Origin: Minisyncoccota bacterium
Lineage (GTDB): Bacteria; Patescibacteriota; Minisyncoccia; Phycocordibacterales; SBAW01
DNA length: 64,000 nt
Reading direction: 5' to 3'
NCBI GenBank assembly: GCA_035510635.1
Contig: DATKGU010000003.1
Coordinates: 662 to 64,661, forward strand
Position numbers and translations under genes: made by a program. Every line of letters starts with the position of its first letter. The first letter of the stretch is position 1. Below, in pieces: positions 1 through 12,411 of the stretch. The notes under the pieces were generated by a model. It worked only from the letters and a program-made list of their open reading frames with translations, was not told where the DNA came from and did no database searches.

Positions 1-3
1 AAA

Positions 4-38
4 CCTGCAACCTTTTCCCGTAGGGGTTGCAGGTCAAA
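4..38 (-). terminator. Intrinsic terminator hairpin. On the minus strand: CCTGCAACC-loop-GGTTGCAGG followed by TTT at the window edge.
   Basis: 9-bp perfect stem at 6-38; minus-strand reading is followed by a T-run; lies downstream of minus-strand genes ending at 183. Confidence 0.35.
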
Positions 39-182
39 TTATGTCTCCGATCTGGATTTTCCTTACAAGTGGAGCAAAATCATATAAAACCCTTATATTG
101 CAACGTAAAACAGTTAAAAACCCATCGATTACCACCGTAAGCAACTTGTATTTACGCGCGCGTAGGGAGCGTGACGGCATGG

Positions 183-374
183 TCAGTCAAACAGACTAGG
201 CTGCTTTGTTGCACGACGCGGCCTGCGCTGCCGCTCTGCTCCCCAGATCAACTGGGCGAGCCGTAGGAGATAGTGCAGGGCGTCGCAACCCTCGCGGAAC
301 GAAAGGTCTCGGCCGGTCGTTTCTTTGATGATGCGCCGCAGCTCCGTGACGTCTTGCCTTGAGAAAATAGACAT
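183..374 (-). CDS. Hypothetical small protein (63 aa), basic C-terminus.
   Basis: ORF downstream of the HEPN-like gene on the same strand; no recognisable motif. Confidence 0.25.
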   Translation of the reverse strand: MSIFSRQDVTELRRIIKETTGRDLSFREGCDALHYLLRLAQLIWGAERQRRPRRATKQPSLFD

Positions 375-449
375 TCGTCCATTCCAACTCTGGCGACCGT
401 AAATGCAAGTCGCATTAGACGCGCGAGGTGCCCATGTAATTCTATTTCG

Positions 450-1394
450 TTAAAACCCTTCTGGCGGTTTAGTGTGTATAAAGCTATTCACACTAATTAC
501 CTTACCTTGCTCTTTTTCTAGAAAATACGTGAGCACTTCTTTGAGATCAGGCATCTTAGAGTGATCGATGGTTTTGATGAAGTTGGTAAACCCCGCTTTG
601 TTTTCGAAGAAGTTTCTCTGCGGTTGTACTACGTCATGGTCGATGAGTTCGCTCTTCAGAATTTCGTTATTAAAATATGAGACGACCGCCTTGTGTATTT
701 CACTCACGAAATCCCTCTCGTTTCTGGGTGCAGAATAATACTCGCCATGGGATAACTGATTACGAAGCCCTGCCGTGTTCTCAAAAATGTCACTAGCCAA
801 TTTGTCGCCGAGAATACTTTTATACAAATCTATAGCGTCGGGAAATGCCGTTTTATTCCTTTTGCGCCCAAGCGCTTCGATGGCTGCAAACATAAGGAGT
901 AATTTTGACGAATACCCAGTTGTGTTGGTAGCGTCGTTCCAGTAGAGATAAAAATCATTCGGTATCGTCGCCTCTGCATACAGCGTCCCAATGGCCTGCC
1001 CGTGCCTCTGAAGTAAAAGCAAACCCTGAGCATCTCGATCTCTGGTAAAGCGGAACAGTCCAGTGCTAGGGAATGAATCGGATCTAGTGATTAAAAAAGG
1101 CTCAAGGACGAATCGAACATAGCCTTGGCTCACCAGAGAAATTCTGGAAGTTATCTTCTCCAGTTTGTCGATGAAATGTGCGTAGGCCTTCTCCCAGTCC
1201 GCTGCGTTGATCTTCGCGCTTGCGAACCAAAAATCTCCGGTCGGGCCGGTCTGGATAGTGAAGTGCTCCTGTCGAAAAATAATTCCGTCCACGACAAAGC
1301 TCGGATCAGTTCCGTCTCCCATCGCGAGATGACTGATTGATCGGATTCGATGCTCGATGAAGTATTCGTTCATGATCCTAATACTCTGTTGCAC
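450..1394 (-). CDS. HEPN-domain (Rx4H) Abi-like protein, possibly Apea/Abi family. Likely true start MNEYF at 1373.
   Basis: C-terminal motif TAGLRNQLSHGEYY (R-x4-H followed by G) typical of HEPN RNase-like abortive-infection proteins. Paralogous motif context to ORF 4687-5799. Confidence 0.5.
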   Translation of the reverse strand: MQQSIRIMNEYFIEHRIRSISHLAMGDGTDPSFVVDGIIFRQEHFTIQTGPTGDFWFASAKINAADWEKAYAHFIDKLEKITSRISLVSQGYVRFVLEPFLITRSDSFPSTGLFRFTRDRDAQGLLLLQRHGQAIGTLYAEATIPNDFYLYWNDATNTTGYSSKLLLMFAAIEALGRKRNKTAFPDAIDLYKSILGDKLASDIFENTAGLRNQLSHGEYYSAPRNERDFVSEIHKAVVSYFNNEILKSELIDHDVVQPQRNFFENKAGFTNFIKTIDHSKMPDLKEVLTYFLEKEQGKVISVNSFIHTKPPEGF

Positions 1395-2193
1395 TACGCT
1401 GTTCTGCGTCCTTGAGAGCTTTCTCCACTTCTGAGTCGATTATCTTTTCGATTCGCTCAAAGGAATCGAGAGTTCGTAACTTAGCTCGTTCAGCCTTCGG
1501 CATAAAGAACTTAAAGCTCGGGCTCTCCATCTTCCACCACATGTAATAGCCTCGCCAATGTCGCTTTCGCAGACGATCGTTATAAATTTTTATTCGCGTG
1601 AGTGCCTTGATCGGCTCACTCATTTTCTTGTTGGCGTAGGCTTCAATTCCATCGGCGAAGGCTTCGAGATTTTGAGCGTAGGCGAGTCGTTGTGTCGGCG
1701 GGTCTGGGTTCGGGCCACTTTGCATCAAGGCGACAAGGGTTTCGTTCCCCCTGAGCATATCCTCAAAGTCTGGCTTTAGTTGCGAGAGAATACGATTCAT
1801 CTCTTTGATTCGGCTGTCAGAAAAGAGAGATTGATTGTGCAGGTAATAACTCCTAATTTTCAGGGTATGAATGTCGGGATCTCGATACACATCCAAAAAT
1901 GCGGGACAGTTGATACGGTCGAGCGCGAATGCGTTTGGACGCGTCTCCGCCCGTGTTTCTGCTGATAAGGCTCTGATTTTCTTCGCAAAATCTCTCAACT
2001 GAGCTCTGGTGAAATAAATGTCATTGAGTGCTGCGGTCGACCCGACTTCAATGCGTCGCATGGTTTCCCTTATCTCGGCGTTTTTCTCGAGCTTCGATTT
2101 TATGCTAAATCCAATGGCTGAGAGGATGACAGCCAAAAAAGGGCCGAGTCCAGCGCCTATGAGGGTCTGCCATTTGTTTAAAAAATCACCCAT
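1378..2193 (-). CDS. Membrane-anchored hypothetical protein (N-terminal TM helix, helical cytoplasmic domain). Overlaps the start of the HEPN gene by 17 nt, so probably an operon partner.
   Basis: Hydrophobic stretch LIGAGLGPFLAVILSAIGFSI at residues 10-30; 17-nt overlap with the downstream ORF. Confidence 0.5.
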   Translation of the reverse strand: MGDFLNKWQTLIGAGLGPFLAVILSAIGFSIKSKLEKNAEIRETMRRIEVGSTAALNDIYFTRAQLRDFAKKIRALSAETRAETRPNAFALDRINCPAFLDVYRDPDIHTLKIRSYYLHNQSLFSDSRIKEMNRILSQLKPDFEDMLRGNETLVALMQSGPNPDPPTQRLAYAQNLEAFADGIEAYANKKMSEPIKALTRIKIYNDRLRKRHWRGYYMWWKMESPSFKFFMPKAERAKLRTLDSFERIEKIIDSEVEKALKDAEQRSATEY

Positions 2194-2216
2194 GGGCTTA
2201 ATGGTAATATAGATGC

Positions 2217-3917
2217 ATGAGAGTTGACAGTAAAAAAGTACAACTCGCCCAGCCGTTTATCCCGGGTCTTTCTCCGATCCAATCAGCTGTAGATGAACTA
2301 GCTGCGGCGAACATCGATGACCGCGGCGCAATTTTCACCCGTCGGGAAGTGGTCGACTTTATACTCGATCTCGTCGGCTACACACCTGATAAATCGTTGC
2401 AGGACTTTCGACTGCTAGAGCCGTCATTCGGTCATGGCGATTTTCTTATTCCTGCGATTGAGAGGCTGATGATGTCGATCAAGCGGCAGAAATTACTGCC
2501 AACTGCGGATCTTTTGAAGGAGAGTATTCGTGGGGTGGAACTGCATGTAGCTTCATTCGGAAAAACTGTAAGCGAAGTTAGAGAGATTCTCATTAAAAAC
2601 GAACTTCGGGAGCGTGACGCGGACGAGGTACTAGACGCGTGGTTTGTCCGCGGGGACTTTCTCCTCTCGTTCTTCGGTCAGTCTTTTACTCATGTCGTTG
2701 GTAATCCACCGTATATACGACAGGAAATGGTACCGAACGCACTGATGGCCGAATATCGTCGTCGCTTTGATACCATCTACGATCGTGCTGACATTTACGT
2801 GCCGTTCATCGAGTATTCTCTCAGGCTCCTCGACGAAGGCGGTGTTCTCGGATTTATTTGTGCCGATCGTTGGATGAAAAATCGTTATGGCGGTCCGCTT
2901 CGCGACCTTGTGGCGGCAGAATTTCATCTTCGTGCATATGTCGACATGATCAACACGCACGCCTTTCATTCCGAAGTGATCGCGTATCCGGCAATAACTG
3001 TGATTGCGCGCGAGCCTTCCGGCCCGACACGTATCGCCAAACAACCGGAAATAGAAGCAGGGGCGCTTGAACAACTCTCGAAAGCCCTCAGACAAGATGC
3101 GCCGCATAGCAAAATCCTTCAGACGACCGTGCGGGAGGGCGGGCCATGGACGCTCGACGAATCTGATGCTCTCACGTTCATGCGTCGCCTTGAAGTTGAA
3201 TTCCCGACACTTGAGGAAGCTGGTTGCAAGGTAGGCATTGGTGTCGCAACTGGAGCCGATAGTGTCTTCATTGCTCCTTTCGCGGAGCTCGACGTAGAAG
3301 TTGATCGCAAATTGCCGCTCGCAATGACCAAGGACATACAGAGCGGGAAGGTCGAATGGCGCGGGTTTGGCGTGATAAATCCTTTTGGCGAAGACGGTAA
3401 GCTAGTCTCGCTTTCCGAGTATCCGAAACTGCGTGATTATCTGGAACAGCACAGCGAGACGATCAAGAGCCGTCACGTCTCCAAGAAAAACCCGAATGGC
3501 TGGTACCGGACAATCGATCGCATTTATCCTGAATTGGTGGCGAAACCGAAGCTCCTAATCCCTGACATTAAAGGTGACGCGCATATTGTGTACGAAGAGG
3601 GTAAATTCTATCCGCATCACAACCTCTACTACATAACTTCGGACAGCTGGGATCTGCAGGCACTCAGGTCCGTACTATCTTCCGGCATCGCACGTCTTTT
3701 CATCGAGGCATATTCAACGCGGATGCATGGGAACTGCCTTCGTTTCCAAGCTCAGTACTTGCGGCGCATACGCCTTCCGCAATGGTCTGATGTACCGAAA
3801 GACCTCCGTCGTCAGCTGCGTATTGCCGCTGAAAAGGACGATGTTGCTGCACGCGAAGATGCCGTCTCTCGTCTCTACTCCCTATCACCGTCTGAACGTG
3901 CTACGATTTATAGGTAA
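2217..3917 (+). CDS. Type II N6-adenine DNA methyltransferase (gamma-class, Eco57I/PaeR7I-like).
   Basis: Motif [11 protein letters not shown] (xPxxGxGxFL) and motif [10 protein letters not shown] (NPPY); 566 aa; stop TAA overlaps the ATG of the downstream ORF (TAATG). Confidence 0.85.
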
Positions 3918-4651
3918 TGACTGTAAATCTCGCGCAGTATGAAGATGGCGCTAAGCGCGCCGTAAAGCTCTTCTGGGGCAACCGAGCTACTGCTACTCAG
4001 CAGCAACTTGCTTCCGGAGCCGTCGATCATGGCACGCGCGGAGCGGTCACCGCCGGAAAGAACATGGATGGATTTGCTTCGCTCATGGCGGAGCTTGTTA
4101 AGGCTAATGGCCTCACAAATGCAACTGTTATCCACGGCGGCCGTCTCGTCACGCTCCCGGGCTTCTTCCGTCCAACCAAGCAATGGGATTTGCTCGTTCT
4201 CAATAGTGGGCATCTCGTCGCTGCGCTTGAATTCAAGTCACAAGTCGGATCATTCGGTAATAACTTCAACAACCGCACTGAGGAAGCGATCGGAACGGCG
4301 CATGATCTATGGATCGCATACCGTGAGGGGGCATTCGGCGAACAGCCAAAACCTTTCGTTGGATGGTTGATGCTCCTCGAAGATGCGCCGGGCTCTCGCT
4401 CGCCGGTGAATGACAAATCACCCCATTTTCCACTATTTTCTGACTTTAAGAACGCGTCCTATGCAGACCGCTACAACATCCTTTGTAAAAAGCTCGTGCA
4501 AGAAGGTCTCTATACAGCCGCCTCTGTTTTAATCTCGCCGCAAACCGCAAAAGACACCGGCGAATACGCAGACATGAGCGATCTCAGCAGTCTGCAAACC
4601 TTCGTGGCTACCTTTGCTGGGCACATTGCCGCTGAAGCAGCACGAAAGTAG
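3917..4651 (+). CDS. Putative Type II restriction endonuclease, cognate to the upstream methyltransferase. Size and gene order resemble XhoI/PaeR7I-family (CTCGAG) enzymes (hypothesis).
   Basis: 244-aa ORF translationally coupled (TAATG) to the methyltransferase. M-then-R order and sizes match the PaeR7I system (N6A methyltransferase ~530 aa, endonuclease ~246 aa). No direct catalytic motif could be verified by eye. Confidence 0.55.
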
Positions 4652-4686
4652 CCTCCATTTGAATAGGGAGGTATTGTAGTTCTGCC

Positions 4687-5799
4687 ATGGGTGGACATCT
4701 TTCAGTTACATATTTTCCGTTCCTCAACATGGACGGCGCGAAGGAGATCGACTTCGGGTTTCTCAAAATCTGGAACTTCTCAGCGATGAAGGATACCTAC
4801 GTCCCCGACCAAGCCACGCGCGAACACCTCGAAAAGATCTTCGCCATGCACCAGTCGTACGGGAAGCCGATTGAAGGCATCGGGGTCGTCTCGATCGGGG
4901 CGACAGACTTCAGGGCTTTTACGGAGGACGAGTATCGAAAAATCCGCGCCGCGCGGCTGATCCTTTTTCTCTCTTTTATCGACAGAAACAATACGGGGCA
5001 CGACCCAAACGCCGGCCACTCGATGGTAACGTCCGATACCTTCGATCTCTACACGCAGGGCTTCATCGTCGGCGACGATCACCTCTCAGACCGAGCGGGT
5101 GAGATTATTTCTTTCTTGAGAGGCGGCTTCGAGCTCGGCCGCACCGTGTTTGAAAGACCGGGCTTCGTGCCAGCGCATTTTATGTTCGCGCTCAGCAGCG
5201 ACCTGTTCAGTAGCCTGCGGGACATGCAAGCAAAAAGGCCTCGCGTGTTCGAAAAAGTCATTACCGCGACCGAGCTTTTTTTCGAGAGCTACTACAACGG
5301 TCCGCAGCTCAGCAAGAACGCTCGCGTGCTGTTGCAAGCGAGTGCATTCGAGGTATTGCTGGACCTGCCGGAAAGGGATCAACGCAAGCACTTCAAAGAA
5401 GCAATCGGCACGCTAACGAACCTACCGGGCGAGAAGACCTATACGCACTTTTCCGAGAGAACTGGGAGACTCAAAGTCAGGGAGAAAATTACGATCAAGC
5501 AGATCTGGGCGGACTTGTTTTACACTCTCCGGAACCACATCATCCACGGCAATACTCCAAAGAGCAGCGACTTTGTATTCAAGGGTGCACGGCACACGGA
5601 CATCACCGTCCAGTTTTTCGTTCTCTGTGTCCGGAAGCTGATCGAAAAAAAACTCCCGGGGCACCCGTGCGATCACCTCATCGAGTGGGGTTCGTGGGAG
5701 GACGCCTCACAAACACCGCCGACGCGTGTGAACGGATTTGTATATCGCGTTGAAATAATGAAAAAAATTGCGCGCGCCCTAAAAAAGAAGAGCCCTTAA
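4687..5799 (+). CDS. Second HEPN-like (Rx4H) protein, divergent paralog of ORF 450-1394.
   Basis: Motif FYTLRNHIIHGNT (R-x4-H-G) about 60 aa from the C-terminus; upstream helix SAFEVLLDL parallels AAIEALG in the other protein; SD GGGAGG upstream. Confidence 0.5.
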   Translation: MGGHLSVTYFPFLNMDGAKEIDFGFLKIWNFSAMKDTYVPDQATREHLEKIFAMHQSYGKPIEGIGVVSIGATDFRAFTEDEYRKIRAARLILFLSFIDRNNTGHDPNAGHSMVTSDTFDLYTQGFIVGDDHLSDRAGEIISFLRGGFELGRTVFERPGFVPAHFMFALSSDLFSSLRDMQAKRPRVFEKVITATELFFESYYNGPQLSKNARVLLQASAFEVLLDLPERDQRKHFKEAIGTLTNLPGEKTYTHFSERTGRLKVREKITIKQIWADLFYTLRNHIIHGNTPKSSDFVFKGARHTDITVQFFVLCVRKLIEKKLPGHPCDHLIEWGSWEDASQTPPTRVNGFVYRVEIMKKIARALKKKSP

Positions 5800-5803
5800 C
5801 GGC

Positions 5804-7009
5804 TTATTGCGATCCGTATTGCGGAATATCGCCGTACTGCGGGTTGCCCGTCTCTATCGCATCCTCGGCGGTGCGTAAGTCGGAAGGAAGGACGACGCAG
5901 CCTATGTATTCCTTGTTCGGATTGCTCTCCGCCATCGTGCTATCCACTTCGCGCAGGAACGCGCACATGTGTACGTCGTTGCCGATGGCGGAGAGGCCGG
6001 ACCAGTTGATCTGACTGAAGGTGCCGAGATCCATGTCGTACGACATGATCATGCTGGTTTTTGAGTTGCCGTACTGATCGGTCGTCTGCCCGTAGTAGCG
6101 GATGAGCACGTCGGTGAAGTCCGAGTCGACGGGAAACACATGCTGGAAGATAGCCGTGCTCAAGAGGCCGGTGTCGGTGATGATCGAATTATCATCAAGC
6201 TCTTCGCTGAGGTTCAGATCGACGGTCACGTTATCCGTGCCGGGCGGCACGGCTTGGTCGCTGTCGATCTCCACGTCCCCGAGAGTAGCCTGCGAATTGA
6301 GCTGTGCTTGTACTGCCGCTTCCGCTTTCTGCTGCGGAGATAGCGGCGCGGATGACGAAGGGGTCTCCGTGCACTGCGCGTTCGTGTCGGCACCGGTGCC
6401 GTGCGCTGTCTGCAGCGTCTCGCAGAGACTCAGAGGATCGGCTTGAGCGGGATCAGTCCAGTCCGTGCCGGCGTATGTTTTCTGATCTATCGTGTATGCG
6501 ATGAGCGGAGCGTTCTGCGAGGCGGTGGTCGTCGCAAAGTAGGTCACGGTCAACGATGACACGGGATACCCCTGTCCGAAGACGCTAGAAAACAAAGGAA
6601 CGGTATACGGGCCGGTGAGTCCCGCAACGACCGACTCGTCGACGCCGAGAAAGTTCGCCGGCACACCGAGGTTCACGCTGACCGCGCCTGCGTTATTGAT
6701 CGTCGTGCCCTCATACGTGGCAGCGCCTTTGAGCTTGCTTGCGACGACAGATTGCACGGCGCTCTCGATGGCCGATGTCTGCGCCGATGAGAGAACAGGA
6801 GTTGCGGGAACGATTGCTGCGGCTTGAGTTACTGTCGAAGGTGACGAAAGAGATGTGAGACCAAGTATGACAAAAGACGCGCCGGCGATACCACCGAAAA
6901 CATACCTCACGTGCTTACTCGACGACATTCGCACGAAGCGGGGCTTGATACTGCCGACGACGAGGGCGACAAGCGACGCAAGAAATATAACAACGAGGAG
7001 AGTATCCAT
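5804..7009 (-). CDS. Secreted or membrane-anchored Ser/Thr/Ala-rich low-complexity protein (putative surface protein).
   Basis: N-terminal hydrophobic helices (LLVVIFLASLVALVVG; GGIAGASFVILGLTSL); long S/T/A-rich region; Cys-containing C-terminal domain. Confidence 0.55.
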   Translation of the reverse strand: MDTLLVVIFLASLVALVVGSIKPRFVRMSSSKHVRYVFGGIAGASFVILGLTSLSSPSTVTQAAAIVPATPVLSSAQTSAIESAVQSVVASKLKGAATYEGTTINNAGAVSVNLGVPANFLGVDESVVAGLTGPYTVPLFSSVFGQGYPVSSLTVTYFATTTASQNAPLIAYTIDQKTYAGTDWTDPAQADPLSLCETLQTAHGTGADTNAQCTETPSSSAPLSPQQKAEAAVQAQLNSQATLGDVEIDSDQAVPPGTDNVTVDLNLSEELDDNSIITDTGLLSTAIFQHVFPVDSDFTDVLIRYYGQTTDQYGNSKTSMIMSYDMDLGTFSQINWSGLSAIGNDVHMCAFLREVDSTMAESNPNKEYIGCVVLPSDLRTAEDAIETGNPQYGDIPQYGSQ

Positions 7010-7296
7010 GATTTTCCGCGCTTAGTTGATAAGCAACTGGCAGCGGCGATTTTCTAGACACAGAAAACCCGCCACGGGTTCCGGCTTGCGCCGGACGTAC
7101 AGGTTTCCCCATACGGCGGATCACGCAACCCCATGACGGGTTTTCTATGCGTGATCCGACCAGAGGCCATGCCACCGTTGCCGATGGTTTAGGCCCTGCC
7201 CTCTCGGGCTATTCAGTTGTAAGCAAATGTTAGCATCGGCGGCGGCTCCTGACCACCCGCTTTGCTAGCGGCGGCGGTAGAGCCTAGAATGAAGGA

Positions 7297-8019
7297 ATGA
7301 CGGCGGGAGATGAGACGGAAATACAGAGAACCAGATTGATACTGGGTCTATTGAAGCAGCATCTCAATGAAGAAAGTCGTGTCGCATTTTTGTCACTCGA
7401 TACTTTGCGGAAAGTCAAAGACGCGCCCCTCGGTAGTACGACTGCCATAGAGAAAACGCTCGAATGGATTGTCGATGCGTCGAACGGAGAAATAACTTTC
7501 GACGTCGTAGAAACACCGACAATGTGGCAGCGAGAAGTTGATACTGCGCATCCTGATCCTGAGCCGCCTGTTTTCGGACCACTCGTTAAATCCGGCTTCA
7601 GGGTATGGGTATCGAATCCCAAGAAAATAGACGAATACTTCAATGCGATCCTCAAAGAGAAAAATCTATCGGTCAAAAAACCGCGCTCAAAGAAAAAGCC
7701 GTTTTTCAGCGAGATCGTGATCGGCAAGTTACATGCATGCGCTGACGGTCTAATCAGGTTTGGGGGAAATGTCGTCGACATGCGACCTCAGCTCGCGACG
7801 CTCTGTTGGCTTTTTATGGAGCATGAGGGAGCCCTCGTCACGATTGATGATATTAAAGAGCGCATTATCGAGGCGAGCAAACGAGCCGGCACCTCAAATA
7901 CGACGATAGCAAAGTATGTCAGCGAACTTCACCGACCCCTCCAAGATGTGTATGGGGGTGAGGTAATTTTCAACGAGAAGGATATTGGCTGGCGTTTTGA
8001 GCCAGAACGAACAGCCTAA
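7297..8019 (+). CDS. Transcriptional regulator with C-terminal OmpR/PhoB-type winged-helix DNA-binding domain (no receiver domain).
   Basis: C-terminus ...LATLCWLFMEHEGALVTIDDIKERI...YVSELHRPLQDVYGGEVIFNEKDIGWRFE matches the trans_reg_C pattern (L..ELL..L..N.G.VVSR..L...VWG...YV..LR.KL.....I.TVRG.GYRF). Confidence 0.5.
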   Translation: MTAGDETEIQRTRLILGLLKQHLNEESRVAFLSLDTLRKVKDAPLGSTTAIEKTLEWIVDASNGEITFDVVETPTMWQREVDTAHPDPEPPVFGPLVKSGFRVWVSNPKKIDEYFNAILKEKNLSVKKPRSKKKPFFSEIVIGKLHACADGLIRFGGNVVDMRPQLATLCWLFMEHEGALVTIDDIKERIIEASKRAGTSNTTIAKYVSELHRPLQDVYGGEVIFNEKDIGWRFEPERTA

Positions 8020-8045
8020 TTCAATATTGAATAACGAATGAATAA

Positions 8046-8070
8046 GCCCCCGTAGGATGCGGGGGCTTTT
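8046..8070 (+). terminator. Rho-independent terminator (GCCCCCG-TAGGATG-CGGGGGC-TTTT).
   Basis: 7-bp GC stem plus T-run immediately after the stop of ORF 7297-8019. Confidence 0.6.
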
Positions 8071-8280
8071 ATGTTGCACAAGAAAGCCCTGCATGAACTA
8101 AAAGAAATCATGGCACGCGACTACGGCGTGCGGATTTCCGATGACCAAGCCGAGGAGCTCGGTGTCTCTCTGCTACGCCTTACGCGCATAGGACTTGCTG
8201 CTCTCGCCCGAGCGAGCGAACAAAAAACGTTCGTTCAGGCGAGGGATGGAAATTCCCTCGGAGCAAAGACCAGCACGTAA
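8071..8280 (+). CDS. Hypothetical small helical protein (69 aa).
   Basis: ORF starting in the terminator T-tract; no motif; low support. Confidence 0.25.
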   Translation: MLHKKALHELKEIMARDYGVRISDDQAEELGVSLLRLTRIGLAALARASEQKTFVQARDGNSLGAKTST

Positions 8281-8685
8281 GTCGCGTGCCTCTTCAAGCC
8301 CCGGGCGCACCCGTGTGGGGCTTGTAAAAATAAAACAGACACGGGCTGGCTTCGTGATCCCGCGATAAAGGGATGGCCGAGTATCGGCACACGAGCCACC
8401 ACTGGTTGCGGTGTAGCTAACCGTTCCTAACGCAACTACGTACGCCGCCGAATGCGCTTGCGCTACTCGGCCGGACAATTGGAACCAAGTCGCTCTCCGA
8501 GAGAAAACGGATCAAGAGCACGGCGAACCCCCTAAGGCAAATGCCGTGGGGGTAAGGGGGCTCTGGCAACCGGGCCAAGTATCAGCATTTATAAGGCTTT
8601 TCACTTCATCACAAATTATGGACTGGATATAAATCGTGTTCTCGGTAGTGTCTGTATAGCAACATTAGTTACTTAAAAAACAACC

Positions 8686-10437
8686 ATGAAAACAACAGGA
8701 AAATTGAATTACGGAGGATACTCGCGCAAGTCGAGCGAGGCGGAAGATAAGCAAGCGCTCTCGATCGACTCGCAGATTGATGAACTCAAGAAGCTCGCCG
8801 CAAGCAAGAAAATCGTACTACGAGATGAAGACATAATGCAGGAAGCGCATTCAGCAAAAAGTGCCTTCGCCCGCCCCGTATTCGAATTGCTTATCAAGCA
8901 CATCGAGCAACGCAAGGTGCAAGGCTTACTTGTGTGGCATCCAAACCGGCTCTCACGCAACGCCGTCGACGCGGCGCGCCTTATCCAACTGATGGACGAA
9001 GGGAAACTCGTCGAGATAGTTACGCCGAGCCAGACGTTCCATGACACGCCGCAAGACAAGTTCTTCTTCACGCTCATGACCAGCCAAGCAAAAATGGAGA
9101 ACGATGCGAAAGGCATCGATGTAAAGCGCGGACTCCGAAAAAAGAACGAGATGGGGTACCCAGCCGGCGTCGCCAAACTGGGGTACGTCAATGACTACGG
9201 CGAAAAGGGATATCGGAAGCTCGAGGCGGACCCTGAGCGCTTCGAACTCGTAAAACAGCTGCTACTCATGTTTCTTTCGGGAAAGCACTCTGCACGAGCA
9301 CTCCTGAAGCACTCAACCAATGTCATGCGACTGCATACGATCCAGCGCAAAAAAGAAGGCGGCCGACCTATCCAACTCTCTCGTATTTATACGATGCTGC
9401 AAGACCCATTCTATGCAGGCTTCTTCTGGGCCAAAGACGAAAACAGAGAAACCAAGCGATATGAGGTCAACGAGGCTGTGCCGCGAATGATTACGGAAGC
9501 CCAGTACTGGGAGATACAGACCATGCTCGGCCGGAACGGTATCCCGCGCCCGACCCTTAACAAGGATTCGTTTCCGTACGCTGGTAGGACGCGATGCGGA
9601 AACTGTAACGGTACGGTGATTGCGGAACACAAGCACCAATTGATCTGCCCAAACTGCCGGAATAAATTCGCATACAAAAACAAAGAGGTGTGTCCGCGTT
9701 GCGACACCCGAATAGATCGCATGGAAAACGCGACATACCTCCACTACATCTACTACCACTGCAATAAAGGCAAAAACCCGACCTGCGAGGAGCCGAGCAT
9801 CCAGCAGTCGGGTATAGACGAATCCATGGCGAAGCGCATCGAACAGGAGCTCGAAACGTCGAGGGCCCTTAGTGAATGGTGCATCCAGCACCTTGAGATT
9901 ATCGCGGGCGAAGAGCGCAAAAATGAGTACGAGCGCAAAGAAGGCCTAAAGCGCGAGCTGGCGCAAAAAGAAAAAGAGAGCGAAGAACTCATTCGCATGC
10001 GCATGAAAGGCCTTATCGAGGACGATGACGAGTTCCTGCGATACAAGGAAGGGCTGGAGAGCGACAAGCGCCGAATAAAGCAAGTTCTAGACGACATGGG
10101 CGGAACGGACACCGCGAGTCTCGAGGAGGCAAAGAAAGCCTTCGCCGTGATCGTCGGATTGAGCGCAGTGTTCAAAAGCGGCACATTCGAGGAAAAACAG
10201 GAGGCTTTATCGGTGCTCGGTTCGAACCTAACTTTAAAGGAGAAAAACCTCAACGTTATCAACAAGAAAGTGTTCTTATTGATTTCAAAAGGCCTACTTG
10301 AGGCGAGAGCCAAAAACCCTACGTTCGAACCTAGAAATTATGAGGCAGATAAAGACGAAACGGAGGCATTCGCCTCCGTTCGTCCAACCTTGCTCCGCGA
10401 CCAGGACTCGAACCTGGAACCAACTCCTTACACGTAA
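8686..10437 (+). CDS. Large serine recombinase/integrase (resolvase-type catalytic domain, recombinase domain and zinc-ribbon). The annotated 3' end reads through into the tRNA-Asn 3' exon.
   Basis: N-terminus GYSRKSSEAEDKQALSID...VWHPNRLSRN (catalytic Ser, resolvase fold); Cys clusters CGNCNG...CPNC and CPRC...C (zinc ribbon); coiled-coil C-terminus; 583 aa. Confidence 0.85.
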   Translation: MKTTGKLNYGGYSRKSSEAEDKQALSIDSQIDELKKLAASKKIVLRDEDIMQEAHSAKSAFARPVFELLIKHIEQRKVQGLLVWHPNRLSRNAVDAARLIQLMDEGKLVEIVTPSQTFHDTPQDKFFFTLMTSQAKMENDAKGIDVKRGLRKKNEMGYPAGVAKLGYVNDYGEKGYRKLEADPERFELVKQLLLMFLSGKHSARALLKHSTNVMRLHTIQRKKEGGRPIQLSRIYTMLQDPFYAGFFWAKDENRETKRYEVNEAVPRMITEAQYWEIQTMLGRNGIPRPTLNKDSFPYAGRTRCGNCNGTVIAEHKHQLICPNCRNKFAYKNKEVCPRCDTRIDRMENATYLHYIYYHCNKGKNPTCEEPSIQQSGIDESMAKRIEQELETSRALSEWCIQHLEIIAGEERKNEYERKEGLKRELAQKEKESEELIRMRMKGLIEDDDEFLRYKEGLESDKRRIKQVLDDMGGTDTASLEEAKKAFAVIVGLSAVFKSGTFEEKQEALSVLGSNLTLKEKNLNVINKKVFLLISKGLLEARAKNPTFEPRNYEADKDETEAFASVRPTLLRDQDSNLEPTPYT

Positions 10438-10699
10438 TCCCACATTGCTGGGGGCGTGGACTATATCATCATCCCAGTTACTAAACTGTCGGATGCGAGG
10501 CGCTTCGTGCCGCAAAACAACTTTGCGGAACTACTCCCTTGCGGGATAGTCTCTACACCTTTTCCAAAACTTTTGGAACTTGGCTCGGGATTGCCCTTAT
10601 TGCTAAGGGTTTCCCCGAATTCACCTCGTTTTGCAATCCAGATTACGCTGGAAAGCTGCCTTTTGACAGGGAGCTGCTCTACCATTGAGCTATCGCGGA
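10393..10699 (-). tRNA. tRNA-Asn(GUU) interrupted by a group I intron in the anticodon loop (exons 10666-10699 and 10393-10430; mature length 72 nt, CCA not encoded).
   Basis: 5' exon UCCGCGA-UA-GCUC-AAUGGUA-GAGC-A-GCUCC-CUGU. 3' exon UAA-GGAGU-UGGUU-CCAGG-UUCGAGU-CCUGG-UCGCGGA-G. Acceptor stems complementary, U1-A72, G73, loop CUGUUAA identical to E. coli tRNA-Asn. An alternative splice reading would give Thr(UGU). Confidence 0.65.
10431..10665 (-). ncRNA. Group I self-splicing intron, IC3-like (Azoarcus/tRNA-type), 235 nt, no ORF.
   Basis: P1: exon CUGU^C pairs with IGS GGCAG (U.G at the splice site). R-like GGUGUAGAGACUA and S-like GAUAUAGUCC elements form P7 (GACUA/UAGUC). Strong similarity to the Azoarcus intron core (AAUUCGGGGAAACC...CCGAGCCAAGUUCC...AAGGUGUAGAGACUA). 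Terminal G before the 3' exon. Confidence 0.7.
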
Positions 10700-10835
10700 A
10701 TGTCTATCCCCAGTGCGGGAATACTCATGGATAATAGCTCAAAAGGAATCGTTTGGAAAGTTCACCTTATCTTTATAGGGTATACTTACTATTGATTTAA
10801 GAGATGAGTTTTTATCAACTAAAACGGATATTTTT

Positions 10836-11207
10836 ATGATAGCGCACACCTCGATACCGGTCGGCAATTACAAAAAGGCCAAGGAATTTTATCAAAAGGT
10901 GCTCGCGCCTTTGGGCTATACACAAAATATGGAGTATGGCGAAGCGGCCGGCTTTAACGACGGCACAAACACCGACTTTTGGGTTGGCACTAACGAAAAG
11001 GGCATTGTGCCAACACATGTTGCCTTTATGGCCAAGAACAAAGAGGAAGTTGAAGCCTTTTATAAGGCAGCTCTTGATGCCGGCGCCACGGACAACGGCG
11101 CCCCCGGATATCGCAAAGAGTATTGGCCCGGATACTATGCCGCATTTGTGCATGATGCCGACGGCCACAATATAGAGGCGGTGTGGTTTGATTATGATGC
11201 TAAATAG
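10836..11207 (+). CDS. VOC/glyoxalase-bleomycin resistance family protein.
   Basis: 123 aa, N-terminus MIAHTSIPVGNYKKAKEFYQKVLAPLGY typical of glyoxalase-like fold. Confidence 0.65.
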   Translation: MIAHTSIPVGNYKKAKEFYQKVLAPLGYTQNMEYGEAAGFNDGTNTDFWVGTNEKGIVPTHVAFMAKNKEEVEAFYKAALDAGATDNGAPGYRKEYWPGYYAAFVHDADGHNIEAVWFDYDAK

Positions 11208-11215
11208 AGAATGTA

Positions 11216-11581
11216 ATGAATTACAACATTAAGGGCACGGATATTACGGTGACTCCCGAGATACGCGACTATCTCTCAAAAAAGCTAGAGCGCTTCGACA
11301 AGTTTATGCAGGCAAAAGATGCGGCGCGCGCCGATGTTGAGCTTAGCTACCTCGTTGGCGAGGCAAAAATGTATCGCGCCGAAATTATGTTGTTTGAGCA
11401 AAGCTTGCCGTCGCCCTTGCGTGCGGTGGCGGAGGGCGGTGTGTTGTATGAGGCGATAGACAAAGCGGCGGGCGACATTTTTACCGAGCTTACGCGCGGC
11501 AAAAAAAAGCAGCAGCACGTTTTTCGCCGCGGAGCGGCGAGGATTAAAGACTACCTCCGCGGATTTCGCAGCAGGCCATAG
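11216..11581 (+). CDS. hpf: Ribosome hibernation promoting factor / RaiA (short form).
   Basis: MNYNIKGTDITVTPEIRDYLSKKLERFDKF... characteristic HPF/YfiA N-terminus; 121 aa. Confidence 0.85.
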   Translation: MNYNIKGTDITVTPEIRDYLSKKLERFDKFMQAKDAARADVELSYLVGEAKMYRAEIMLFEQSLPSPLRAVAEGGVLYEAIDKAAGDIFTELTRGKKKQQHVFRRGAARIKDYLRGFRSRP

Positions 11582-12411
11582 GGCATTTCCTTTTTACCCT
11601 CGGGGATTACTTTAAGTATGGTGAGTGCGCCATCTTTGAACTCAGCATCAGTGATGATGACTCGCTTTCCTCCTGTATCAATAAAATGCGCGCGCGGATT
11701 TTTGTCGAACGCGCGGATTTTTAAATAATTTTGCCGAGCATCGCCAGAGAGGTCGATGAGGGAGTCGTCATCGGTAAACTTGCGCGTAAATGTTACTTTG
11801 CTCTCATCTTGCGGCTCGGGTGTTATTTTGCCAGCTAGCCACAATGGTAGTGTCTCGGCGAGCACGTTGCCTCCCTCGGTCGCGAGCAGCTCCTCAAACT
11901 GCGAGCCCGGCATCGGCCATGCATCCTCCTCAAGCTCCACGCGTGCTTGTGCAACAATCGGCCCCGCGTCCATAGCCTCGCTCATCTGCATGATTGATAC
12001 GCCGGTAACTCGCTCGTCGGCCAATATTGCCGAGAGGGCAGGCGAGGGGCCGCGGAACTTTGGCAAAAGCGAGGGGTGCACGTTTAGTGCGCCGCGCCGC
12101 GGCATGTCAAGAAACTTTTTTGGTATAAGTTTGGCATAGGCCGCCACCACAAACACGTCCCACTCGGTGTTTTGCAACTCGGCAAAGAGCTCTTCGTTTT
12201 TGAGCGTCGTCGGCGTAAGCACGTCGATGCCGCGCTCCTTGGCCCACGCTTTGGCAGGGGCCTCTTTGAGCTCCATCCCGCGGCCTGCCGGTTTGTCGGG
12301 CGCGGTTATAACTAAAGCTGGCAAGATTCCGTGGCTCTCGAGTGCATTGAGTACTGTGACCGCAAAGTGCGGCGTGCCAAAAAAAGCAAAAAGCGGTTTT
12401 TTAGTACTCAT
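11551..12411 (-). CDS. fmt: Methionyl-tRNA formyltransferase.
   Basis: N-terminus MSTKKPLFAFFGTPHFAVTVLNAL; def-fmt arrangement. Confidence 0.9.
   Translation of the reverse strand: MSTKKPLFAFFGTPHFAVTVLNALESHGILPALVITAPDKPAGRGMELKEAPAKAWAKERGIDVLTPTTLKNEELFAELQNTEWDVFVVAAYAKLIPKKFLDMPRRGALNVHPSLLPKFRGPSPALSAILADERVTGVSIMQMSEAMDAGPIVAQARVELEEDAWPMPGSQFEELLATEGGNVLAETLPLWLAGKITPEPQDESKVTFTRKFTDDDSLIDLSGDARQNYLKIRAFDKNPRAHFIDTGGKRVIITDAEFKDGALTILKVIPEGKKEMPYGLLRNPRR

Follow-up and report, generated by a model that had tools for sequence, protein, structure and literature searches.

The left-hand part of a 64,000-nucleotide stretch of contig DATKGU010000003.1 (assembly GCA_035510635.1, Minisyncoccota bacterium, positions 662–64,661) carries a gene block that is very probably an integrated, non-conjugative and non-phage genomic island of ~10.9 kb, the large serine recombinase (LSR) of which targets the 3′ end of the tRNA-Asn(GUU) gene of an uncultivated Candidatus Paceibacterota host within the candidate phyla radiation (CPR). 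In the following, the window denotes this whole stretch, position 1 being its first letter and negative positions lying to its left, and the contigs used for comparison are given as L numbers. An earlier note, made from the sequence of the window alone, had proposed an accessory element integrated at the 3′ end of tRNA-Asn, and the proposal is borne out by the recombinase gene at the boundary, a direct repeat at the distal end, homology between the left end and that of a related island (L005), and the presence of varied recombinases and cargo at the same site in relatives. Taken together, the data support a family of tRNA-Asn-specific serine-integrase defence islands in CPR bacteria.

Boundaries of the element

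A public contig (L001; Logan SRR8676595_33093; 10,969 nt) matches window positions -549 to 10419 with no mismatches, and its right end (10419) falls 30 nt inside the tRNA gene. The 9-nt direct repeat TTGCTCCGC is present as the attL core at L001 24–32 (window -526 to -518) and as the attR core at window 10390–10398. The element therefore spans -517 to 10389, with the right ~95% (1–10389) inside the window. Its nine nucleotides cover five positions of the acceptor stem, the discriminator base and 3 nt of the sequence that follows the tRNA. L001 has two copies of it and no more in its 10,969 nt, one at each end (positions 24 and 10940), and a match of at least 9 nt within the first 100 nt was obtained in 49 of 5000 shuffles (~1%). 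The left boundary had been placed outside the window by the earlier note, as is indeed the case, and a leftward search for an att repeat of 20–50 nt had been recommended; the repeat exists, but at 9 nt, a length in keeping with a serine integrase, it would be missed by such a search.

The abrupt switch to housekeeping genes that had been noted to the right of the tRNA holds across six genomes, in which the glyoxalase, HPF, fmt and def genes and the genes beyond them are syntenic. All content to the left of the tRNA differs among the same six genomes. GC content shows no contrast between the island and its flanks.

The breaks of the Logan contigs within the tRNA (L001 ends at window 10419 and L002 starts at 10674) could be taken to mean that assembly or binning joined unrelated DNA at a conserved tRNA. 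The probability of such an artefact is vanishingly small, given that the window itself spans the recombinase–tRNA junction, that the independent assembly reproduces the left 10.4 kb with no mismatches and that the same recombinase–tRNA–glyoxalase junction is found in independent metagenome-assembled genomes (MAGs) and metagenomes (L004, L006, L007 and L028). The idea that the contig ends reflect an empty-site variant in the sample was downgraded, as a tRNA shared between organisms also breaks assemblies.

The large serine recombinase

The recombinase (583 residues; 8686–10437, + strand) comprises Resolvase and Recombinase domains and a probable zinc ribbon, and the first two confirm its previous assignment as a large serine recombinase. 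The catalytic domain (PF00239) is matched with an E value of 7.2e-22 (78.5 bits versus a cutoff of 23.3), and 17 diverse family members all retain Y12, R14, S16 and Q23. The Recombinase domain (PF07508; residues 184–283) scores 24.2 bits versus a cutoff of 21.1 (E value 4e-05). Matches to zinc-ribbon profiles are below threshold (DZR_2, 21.5 bits versus 27); the cysteines C304, C307, C321, C324, C336 and C339 are nearly invariant and the L006 recombinase matches Zn_ribbon_recom at 1.1e-9. A total of 924 homologues were found at E ≤1e-10, and those with a named source are all from CPR/Patescibacteria MAGs.

The recombinase gene had been described as abutting the 3′ end of the tRNA in the classic arrangement of an integrated element. 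It does lie at this boundary, but its open reading frame (ORF) crosses the entire tRNA 3′ exon and stops 7 nt into the intron (TAA, 10435–10437), the C-terminal ~16 codons being made up of the att core and the antisense of the 3′ exon. The layout also stands, but it is classic for tyrosine integrases and not for serine integrases (PMC7192596). In the integrated form the tail of the protein reads ...RPTLLR-DQDSNLEPTPYT and is encoded by host tRNA antisense DNA, and in the predicted circular form it would read ...RPTLLR-MVRDVRTCAYESMLPPRGSSAASA, encoded by element DNA. In relatives with a GTAGG T-stem the recombinase ORF ends at a TAG within the tRNA, a stop that is removed by the CCAGG T-stem present here.

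Among characterised enzymes, the integrases of SPbeta (~23% identical) and TP901-1 come closest. This affinity, the typical use of serine integrases by temperate phages and the distant relatives of the recombinase in IMG/VR (identity ≤38%) would fit a degraded prophage or phage satellite with a phage-type serine integrase. We regard this origin as improbable. The scan of IMG/VR viral contigs gave no close relatives of the recombinase, the distant ones not exceeding 38% identity, and matches in cultured phages are ≤25% identical. Capsid, terminase, tail, lysis and replication genes are absent from the islands of the window, L005, L006, L081, L083 and L087, and the islands are only 3.9–11 kb long and are filled with restriction-modification (R-M) or defence genes.

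Distant relatives on IMG/VR contigs (22–31% identity) display the same geometry at the 3′ ends of tRNA-Trp (L093 4723–4796), tRNA-Gly (L133 7551–7626 and L134 7545–7620) and tRNA-Gln (L138 7480–7553). Judged from these sequences, tRNA targeting is suggested to be a trait of the wider LSR clade.

Polymorphism at the tRNA-Asn site

Two MAG loci, L004 and L005, carry recombinases that are 81–83% identical to that of the window, and in both the 3′ end of the gene overlaps an intron-less tRNA-Asn. Four parts of the island recur in L005: the XhoI R-M pair, the region of the small RNA LOOT (see below), the recombinase region and a 63-nt left-end block (window -525 to -463, L005 2279–2341). The core is also the precise starting point of this left-end homology, beyond which, to the left, the two loci have unrelated DNA.

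Site specificity extends over the whole family: the tRNA-Asn 3′ end is overlapped on the opposite strand by all ten of the ten distinct LSR islands sampled (34–100% identity, window included). The ten include four from long contigs (68, 54, 45 and 39% identity), in each of which the site separates accessory genes from housekeeping genes.

The comparison with relatives that had been suggested for presence or absence of the block shows it to be replaced, or to lack a recombinase, at the same site. When metagenomes were scanned with the glyoxalase gene that flanks the tRNA, 75 loci were obtained. The glyoxalase, HPF, fmt and def proteins of L006 and L007 are 89–93% identical to those of the window and their recombinases are 34% (L006) and 45% (L007) identical. 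The cargo of L006 also differs, with an NYN-domain gene; an SPFH gene is located further left, beyond the inferred 3.85-kb island. The tRNA-Asn/glyoxalase/HPF/fmt/def synteny is kept without a recombinase in L012, L026 and L060, and the left flank of L012 consists of ordinary genes. These three loci are not plain empty sites, which is ruled out by attL-type relics in L012 and L026 and by a displaced tRNA fragment in L060. A block fixed in all relatives without an att repeat was thus not found, and neither was a recombinase that is an unrelated resolvase, the two outcomes that the earlier note had named as contradicting its proposal.

The conservation of the adjacency between recombinase and tRNA-Asn over deep divergence could also be explained by a domesticated or regulatory enzyme (an invertase, a resolvase or an XisF-like excisase) residing beside tRNA-Asn at a fixed defence hot spot that was assembled by other means. 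XisF is the best NCBIfam match of the recombinase, albeit far under its cutoff (6e-25; 88 bits versus 375), and excision of the element is something that we infer. Several observations leave this explanation only a slim chance: the recombinase is missing from the syntenic loci L012, L026 and L060, hosts that are ~90% identical hold replaced recombinases of 34–45% identity, the element-end signatures described below are conserved at the far side of variable cargo, two LSR elements occur in tandem in L085, and the island interrupts no gene that excision would restore.

Junction signature and attachment sites

The left junctions consist of the core, a spacer and (AC)GTTAGAAC(C). The corresponding pattern, GCTCC[GA]-N6-16-[GA]TT[ACT]GAAC, has 16 matches on both strands of 2.4 Mb compared with 0.9 in shuffles. 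Every match has the orientation of the element. Four of them correspond to the T-arm of the tRNA itself and the rest are left junctions, located at L001:26 (window), L005:2280, L006:5867 (which bounds the 3.85-kb island), L012:8799, L012:9296, L026:6271, 8136 and 8866, L063:1407 and L085/L086:3073. The distance between GCTCCR and GAAC is N17 in nine of ten attL-type junctions versus N12 in the tRNA, and this 5-bp offset is visible in the right-hand half-sites only. The core shared by attP and attB is short (9 nt here and 7 nt in L005), and the sequences to the left of the core are unrelated among different loci.

According to Rutherford et al. (2013; PMC3783163), the zinc-ribbon-domain motif of serine integrases is found 5 bp closer to the middle of the site in attB than it is in attP, and the GCTCCR–GAAC offset, as a feature of the sequence, matches this 5-bp attP/attB rule. 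When the numbering of Rutherford and coworkers is applied to the junctions, the crossover would be placed at about the TC of GCTCCG, a position inside the identity common to both junction pairs.

Two different LSR elements (1502–3139 and 10001–11722) are arranged in tandem at one tRNA-Asn in L085, the first LSR gene carrying a junction signature at its 3′ end (L085:3073). Recombinase-less loci (L012 8799–9788, L026 6271–9331 and L063 1407–1888) contain one to three tandem units of 465–1865 nt, each of which opens with an attL-type signature (core-N17-GAAC); the two different ~495-nt units of L012 are alike at their ends only (78% and 95%). These units look like non-autonomous mini-elements or decayed islands. 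The L085 tandem, the L012 units and the unrelated sequences to the left of the core suggest that recognition proceeds mainly via the tRNA half-site.

Remnants of the tRNA end were also seen elsewhere. A displaced tRNA-Asn 3′-end fragment lies to the left of the resident tRNA in L060 (9127–9146) and represents a different allele (CCAGG and not GTAGG in the T-stem). In L005, three tRNA-Asn 3′-end fragments (139–154, 248–256 and 293–302), likewise to the left of the resident tRNA, flank a gene block that is DUF262-like by eye, which suggests an older island.

A model of integration

In the proposed circular form of the element, the left arm of attP would be located in the last codons of the recombinase gene, terminator hairpin included, and its right arm would be the conserved left-end sequence GCTCCGC-ATGGTACGCGACGTTAGAAC; the predicted attP (circle) junction is CGCCTCCGTTCGTCCAACCTTGCTCCGCATGGTACGCGACGTTAGAACATGC and the predicted attB (empty-site) junction is ACGCAAATCAAAATAATTTTTGGTTGCTCCGCGACCAGGACTCGAACCTGG. 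The recombinase would pair attP with the tRNA end (attB) and exchange strands within the common TTGCTCCGC, probably near the TC of GCTCCG. The T-arm sequence GACTCGAAC of the tRNA (B′ half-site) would act as the binding motif of the zinc-ribbon domain, placed 5 bp closer to the crossover than CGTTAGAAC of attP, as in serine integrases of the Listeria-phage type. Upon integration the tRNA would stay intact and gain a terminator encoded by the element. The LOOT small RNA, the winged-helix protein, a 69-residue protein (ORF69) and the recombinase form a conserved module that travels with the element, and the cargo, with one or two HEPN proteins besides an R-M pair of the XhoI type, is defensive. 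The site is a hot spot at which new arrivals would integrate between the tRNA and the element already present, giving rise to tandem arrays and recombinase-less mini-elements. Gene content, the tRNA with its intron, the repeat, the junction signature, site specificity across the family and replacement at the site are observed, and the chemistry of recombination, the crossover position, the present-day mobility of the element, the roles of ORF69 and LOOT and the route of transfer between cells are inferred.

A number of points weigh against this interpretation. No transfer or replication genes are recognizable in the element, and no conspecific empty site was found, the left flank being known for 23–24 nt. 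The assembly breaks at both cores, to which tRNA sequence shared among the organisms of the sample could contribute. The dyad symmetry of the reconstructed attP is weak (12/24), as is that of the reconstructed attB, and no convincing mirrored motif was found in the left half-sites. In L012, the 60 nt to the left of the relic core are identical to those to the left of the tRNA (9244–9303 versus 9737–9796), and in L063 at least 22 nt plus the core are identical between the left sides of the relic and the tRNA (1385–1412 versus 1866–1893); such identical left arms are not predicted by a plain attB × attP scheme. The upstream copy in L063 has chromosomal DNA as its neighbour, which excludes a simple origin as right arm of a further unit. 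The HEPN assignments of both cargo proteins are moderate to weak.

A broader version of the model appears doubtful to us at present, namely that the recombinases constitute a large, undescribed CPR/Patescibacteria clade specialized on tRNA 3′ ends (Asn and, distantly, Trp, Gly and Gln), using the T-arm as the zinc-ribbon half-site, with LOOT, as a dedicated structured RNA, and the 69-residue protein controlling the expression or directionality of the recombinase, in an RNA-linked serine-integrase system that would mobilize recombinase-less mini-elements as well.

The target tRNA gene

The tRNA-Asn(GUU) gene (10393–10699, - strand) consists of a 5′ exon (10699–10666), an intron (10665–10431) and a 3′ exon (10430–10393). 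ARAGORN calls no tRNA in the unspliced sequence at 10.4–10.7 kb. The 235-nt intron matches Rfam Intron_gpI (71.7 bits versus a cutoff of 50), and the spliced exons are recognized by ARAGORN as a canonical tRNA-Asn(GUU) that is base-for-base collinear with the intron-less genes of L004 and L005, in agreement with the intron-containing tRNA-Asn described previously. The intron is inserted between anticodon nucleotides 35 and 36 (CUGU | ...GUG | UAAG). Group I introns at the same site are present in L081 (11748–12043) and L083 (11759–11990), with scores of 79–85 bits, in two other Patescibacteria lineages, and the intron is missing from ten further tRNA-Asn genes in relatives, which amounts to a patchy distribution. 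The tRNA-Asn exons are identical between the window and L081.

A terminator hairpin for tRNA-Asn was detected inside the coding sequence of the recombinase (10358–10381, - strand). It is 96.9% paired across eight islands, with compensatory changes in four of eight pairs, and this level was reached in 0 of 500 shuffles. The predicted terminator of the tRNA-Asn gene is thus supplied by the element.

The integration module

The LOOT small RNA (Rfam RF03000) with a terminator hairpin is located at 7060–7195 (- strand; Rfam match at 7080–7195, 84.5 bits versus a cutoff of 46.4). Its region is the most conserved backbone segment of the island, with 87.5% DNA identity to L005 compared with ~77% for the island remainder. 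Full-length matches (79–91 bits versus 46.4) are found in the window, L005 (8246–8381), L081 (7678–7813), L083 (7329–7470) and L085 (8181–8319), and each of these five inspected copies is preceded by a TTACAAC...TGAATA box and carries its own terminator hairpin with a U-run. A covariance model built from the five copies identified eight further LOOT RNAs, all in loci with distant recombinases, bringing the number of LOOT loci to 13, and gave no match in ~70 loci that lack an LSR. Five of these copies, on viral contigs, precede the LSR gene by 160–230 nt in divergent orientation (L104 5642–5780, L107 1996–2132, L119 2054–2195, L122 1825–1969 and L124 2406–2543); LOOT was also found in L088, L099 and L112. 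Because LOOT is present in LSR loci only and the ORFs downstream of it are mutually non-homologous, it is linked to the recombinase and not to the cargo. Rfam lists LOOT only as a small RNA, and the accessible part of the 2017 discovery paper holds no information on it. In the literature reached by our incomplete search, no link between LOOT and a recombinase and no tRNA-Asn LSR islands in CPR bacteria are described.

A winged-helix gene divergent from LOOT (7297–8019, + strand) encodes a 240-residue protein with a C-terminal winged-helix domain of the OmpR/PhoB type and no receiver domain. The earlier note had called it a receiver-less winged-helix regulator; a match to Trans_reg_C does exist, but it is below threshold (E value 8e-4). 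A homologue of 29% identity occupies the same position in L005.

The 69-residue protein ORF69 (8071–8280, + strand) is conserved just upstream of the recombinase in every case, with tblastn identities of 75% in L005, 68% in L004, 50% in L083, 48% in L081 and 46% in L085, and its conservation beside the LSR reaches down to 45% LSR identity. It is a candidate recombination directionality factor or regulator. The GC-rich conserved non-coding region between ORF69 and the recombinase gene (8281–8610, + strand) has compensatory changes in 17 of 100 predicted pairs (three sequences) and a minimum free energy z-score of -2.41; it has no match in Rfam and could represent a structured leader sequence or an additional RNA.

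The non-coding left end of the island measures ~970 nt, its right part being window 1–449, and carries a 63-residue ORF (183–374, - strand) and an iteron-like cluster. The motif AACCTGC occurs in five exact copies, all within L001 133–558 (430 nt), compared with 1.2 expected over 11 kb. With looser copies recognized by eye, the AACCTGC/GCAGGTT cluster spans L001 109–594 (window -441 to 44) and may be a regulator-binding or replication-origin region. An inverted motif pair, ACCTGCAACC/GGTTGCAGGT, was seen by eye at window 3–34. The 63-residue ORF and ORF69 also look alike by eye (pattern EL..I.....G...S.......LLRL) and may be paralogous small DNA-binding proteins, one per element end.

Cargo genes

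The earlier note had listed a restriction system, two HEPN-type proteins, a membrane partner and a Ser/Thr-rich surface protein. The first of these is confirmed by Pfam and PADLOC: a type II N6-adenine DNA methyltransferase (2217–3917, + strand; Pfam Eco57I 1e-20 and TaqI_C; PADLOC MTase_II 5.7e-232) is followed by an XhoI-family type II restriction endonuclease (3917–4651, + strand; Pfam XhoI 2.4e-87; PADLOC REase_II 8.2e-103). The two enzymes share 84% and 89% identity, respectively, with their counterparts in the L005 island.

The HEPN claim stands for one protein and is weak for the other. The 314-residue protein (450–1394, - strand) has no family profile match; its C-terminal HEPN-like domain shows the four-helix fold and the Rx4-6H motif that characterize HEPN domains (Rx4H, R211..H216), and it is predicted to be an RNase-type toxin or an abortive-infection effector. 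The 370-residue protein (4687–5799, + strand), possibly an Apea-like HEPN protein, contains an LRNHIIHG motif and matches HEPN_Apea weakly and below threshold (E value 0.0019; 19.1 bits versus 24.4). BLASTP comparison of the two putative HEPN proteins was not significant. Single-sequence structure prediction was of no use (predicted local distance difference test score 35), and neither a Foldseek search of the PDB with a good structure model nor a profile search against PDB sequences gave a match.

The 271-residue protein proposed as a membrane partner (1378–2193, - strand) has the expected N-terminal hydrophobic segment, which would span the membrane, and no family match. Its gene overlaps that of the 314-residue HEPN protein by 17 nt and, on the basis of this overlap, it is likely to be the partner of the latter. 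Similarly, the proposed surface protein (5804–7009, - strand; 401 residues, rich in Ser, Thr and Ala) has an N-terminal hydrophobic segment that would serve as a membrane anchor and no family match. It represents variable cargo downstream of LOOT and is not homologous to the ORFs that follow LOOT elsewhere.

In the relatives the cargo is mostly restriction-modification: Type I R-M in L081, Type I/IIG methyltransferases and a specificity subunit in L083, and Type III-like R-M with AAA_25 in L087; the L085 island carries a second LSR and a 1265-residue protein. With an XhoI-type R-M system and a HEPN-fold protein here, and R-M systems in L005, L081, L083 and L087, these are defence islands.

Comparison with known systems

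Integration at tRNA genes is regarded as a hallmark of tyrosine integrases. The systematic survey of Mageeney et al. (2020; PMC7192596) covered 297 elements with serine integrases, of which only 14 (4.9%) were at t(m)RNA genes, a rare usage stated there to be previously unreported and in need of experimental proof. The whole LSR clade studied here appears to be dedicated to tRNA-Asn, with junctions that obey the serine-integrase attP/attB rule, which makes it a clear test case of tRNA-gene recognition by such an enzyme. It also offers a view of the movement of defence genes in CPR bacteria, whose genomes are tiny and for which few mobile elements have been described, and the link to the recombinase is the first genomic context for the orphan LOOT RNA. 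The short defined att sites and the compact integrases, less than 25% identical to known ones, are possible orthogonal tools for genome engineering.

The islands resemble those inserted at tRNA genes by tyrosine integrases of the P4/lambda type in having an edge integrase at the tRNA 3′ end, a tRNA that is kept intact, a distal direct repeat, accessory or defence cargo and tandem accretion at one tRNA. They are unlike them in the use of a serine enzyme, in a repeat of 7–9 nt versus ~20–50 nt, in the 5-bp half-site offset and in a recombinase ORF that runs across the att core.

With the characterised serine integrases (Listeria A118/LI, SPbeta SprA/YokA, TP901-1, phiC31 and Bxb1, and CcrAB), the recombinase has in common a probable three-domain architecture, a short identity core and a shared motif that in attP is 5 bp more distal than in attB. 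SCCmec (CcrAB) also inserts at the 3′ end of its conserved target gene, rlmH, which is not inactivated. The present enzyme differs in being at most ~25% identical to these integrases, in its CPR host and in its link to the LOOT small RNA, and it is carried by a small cargo island and not by a phage.

The tycheposons of Prochlorococcus (Hackl et al.; bioRxiv 10.1101/2020.12.28.424599), considered here as functional analogues, are likewise small cargo elements at tRNA genes of streamlined genomes that form tandem arrays and variable islands, and 27 of 937 have a large serine recombinase. Tycheposons overwhelmingly use tyrosine recombinases and often contain replication modules, whereas the family described here consists of LSR elements throughout, has tRNA-Asn as its target, resides in Patescibacteria and is accompanied by LOOT.

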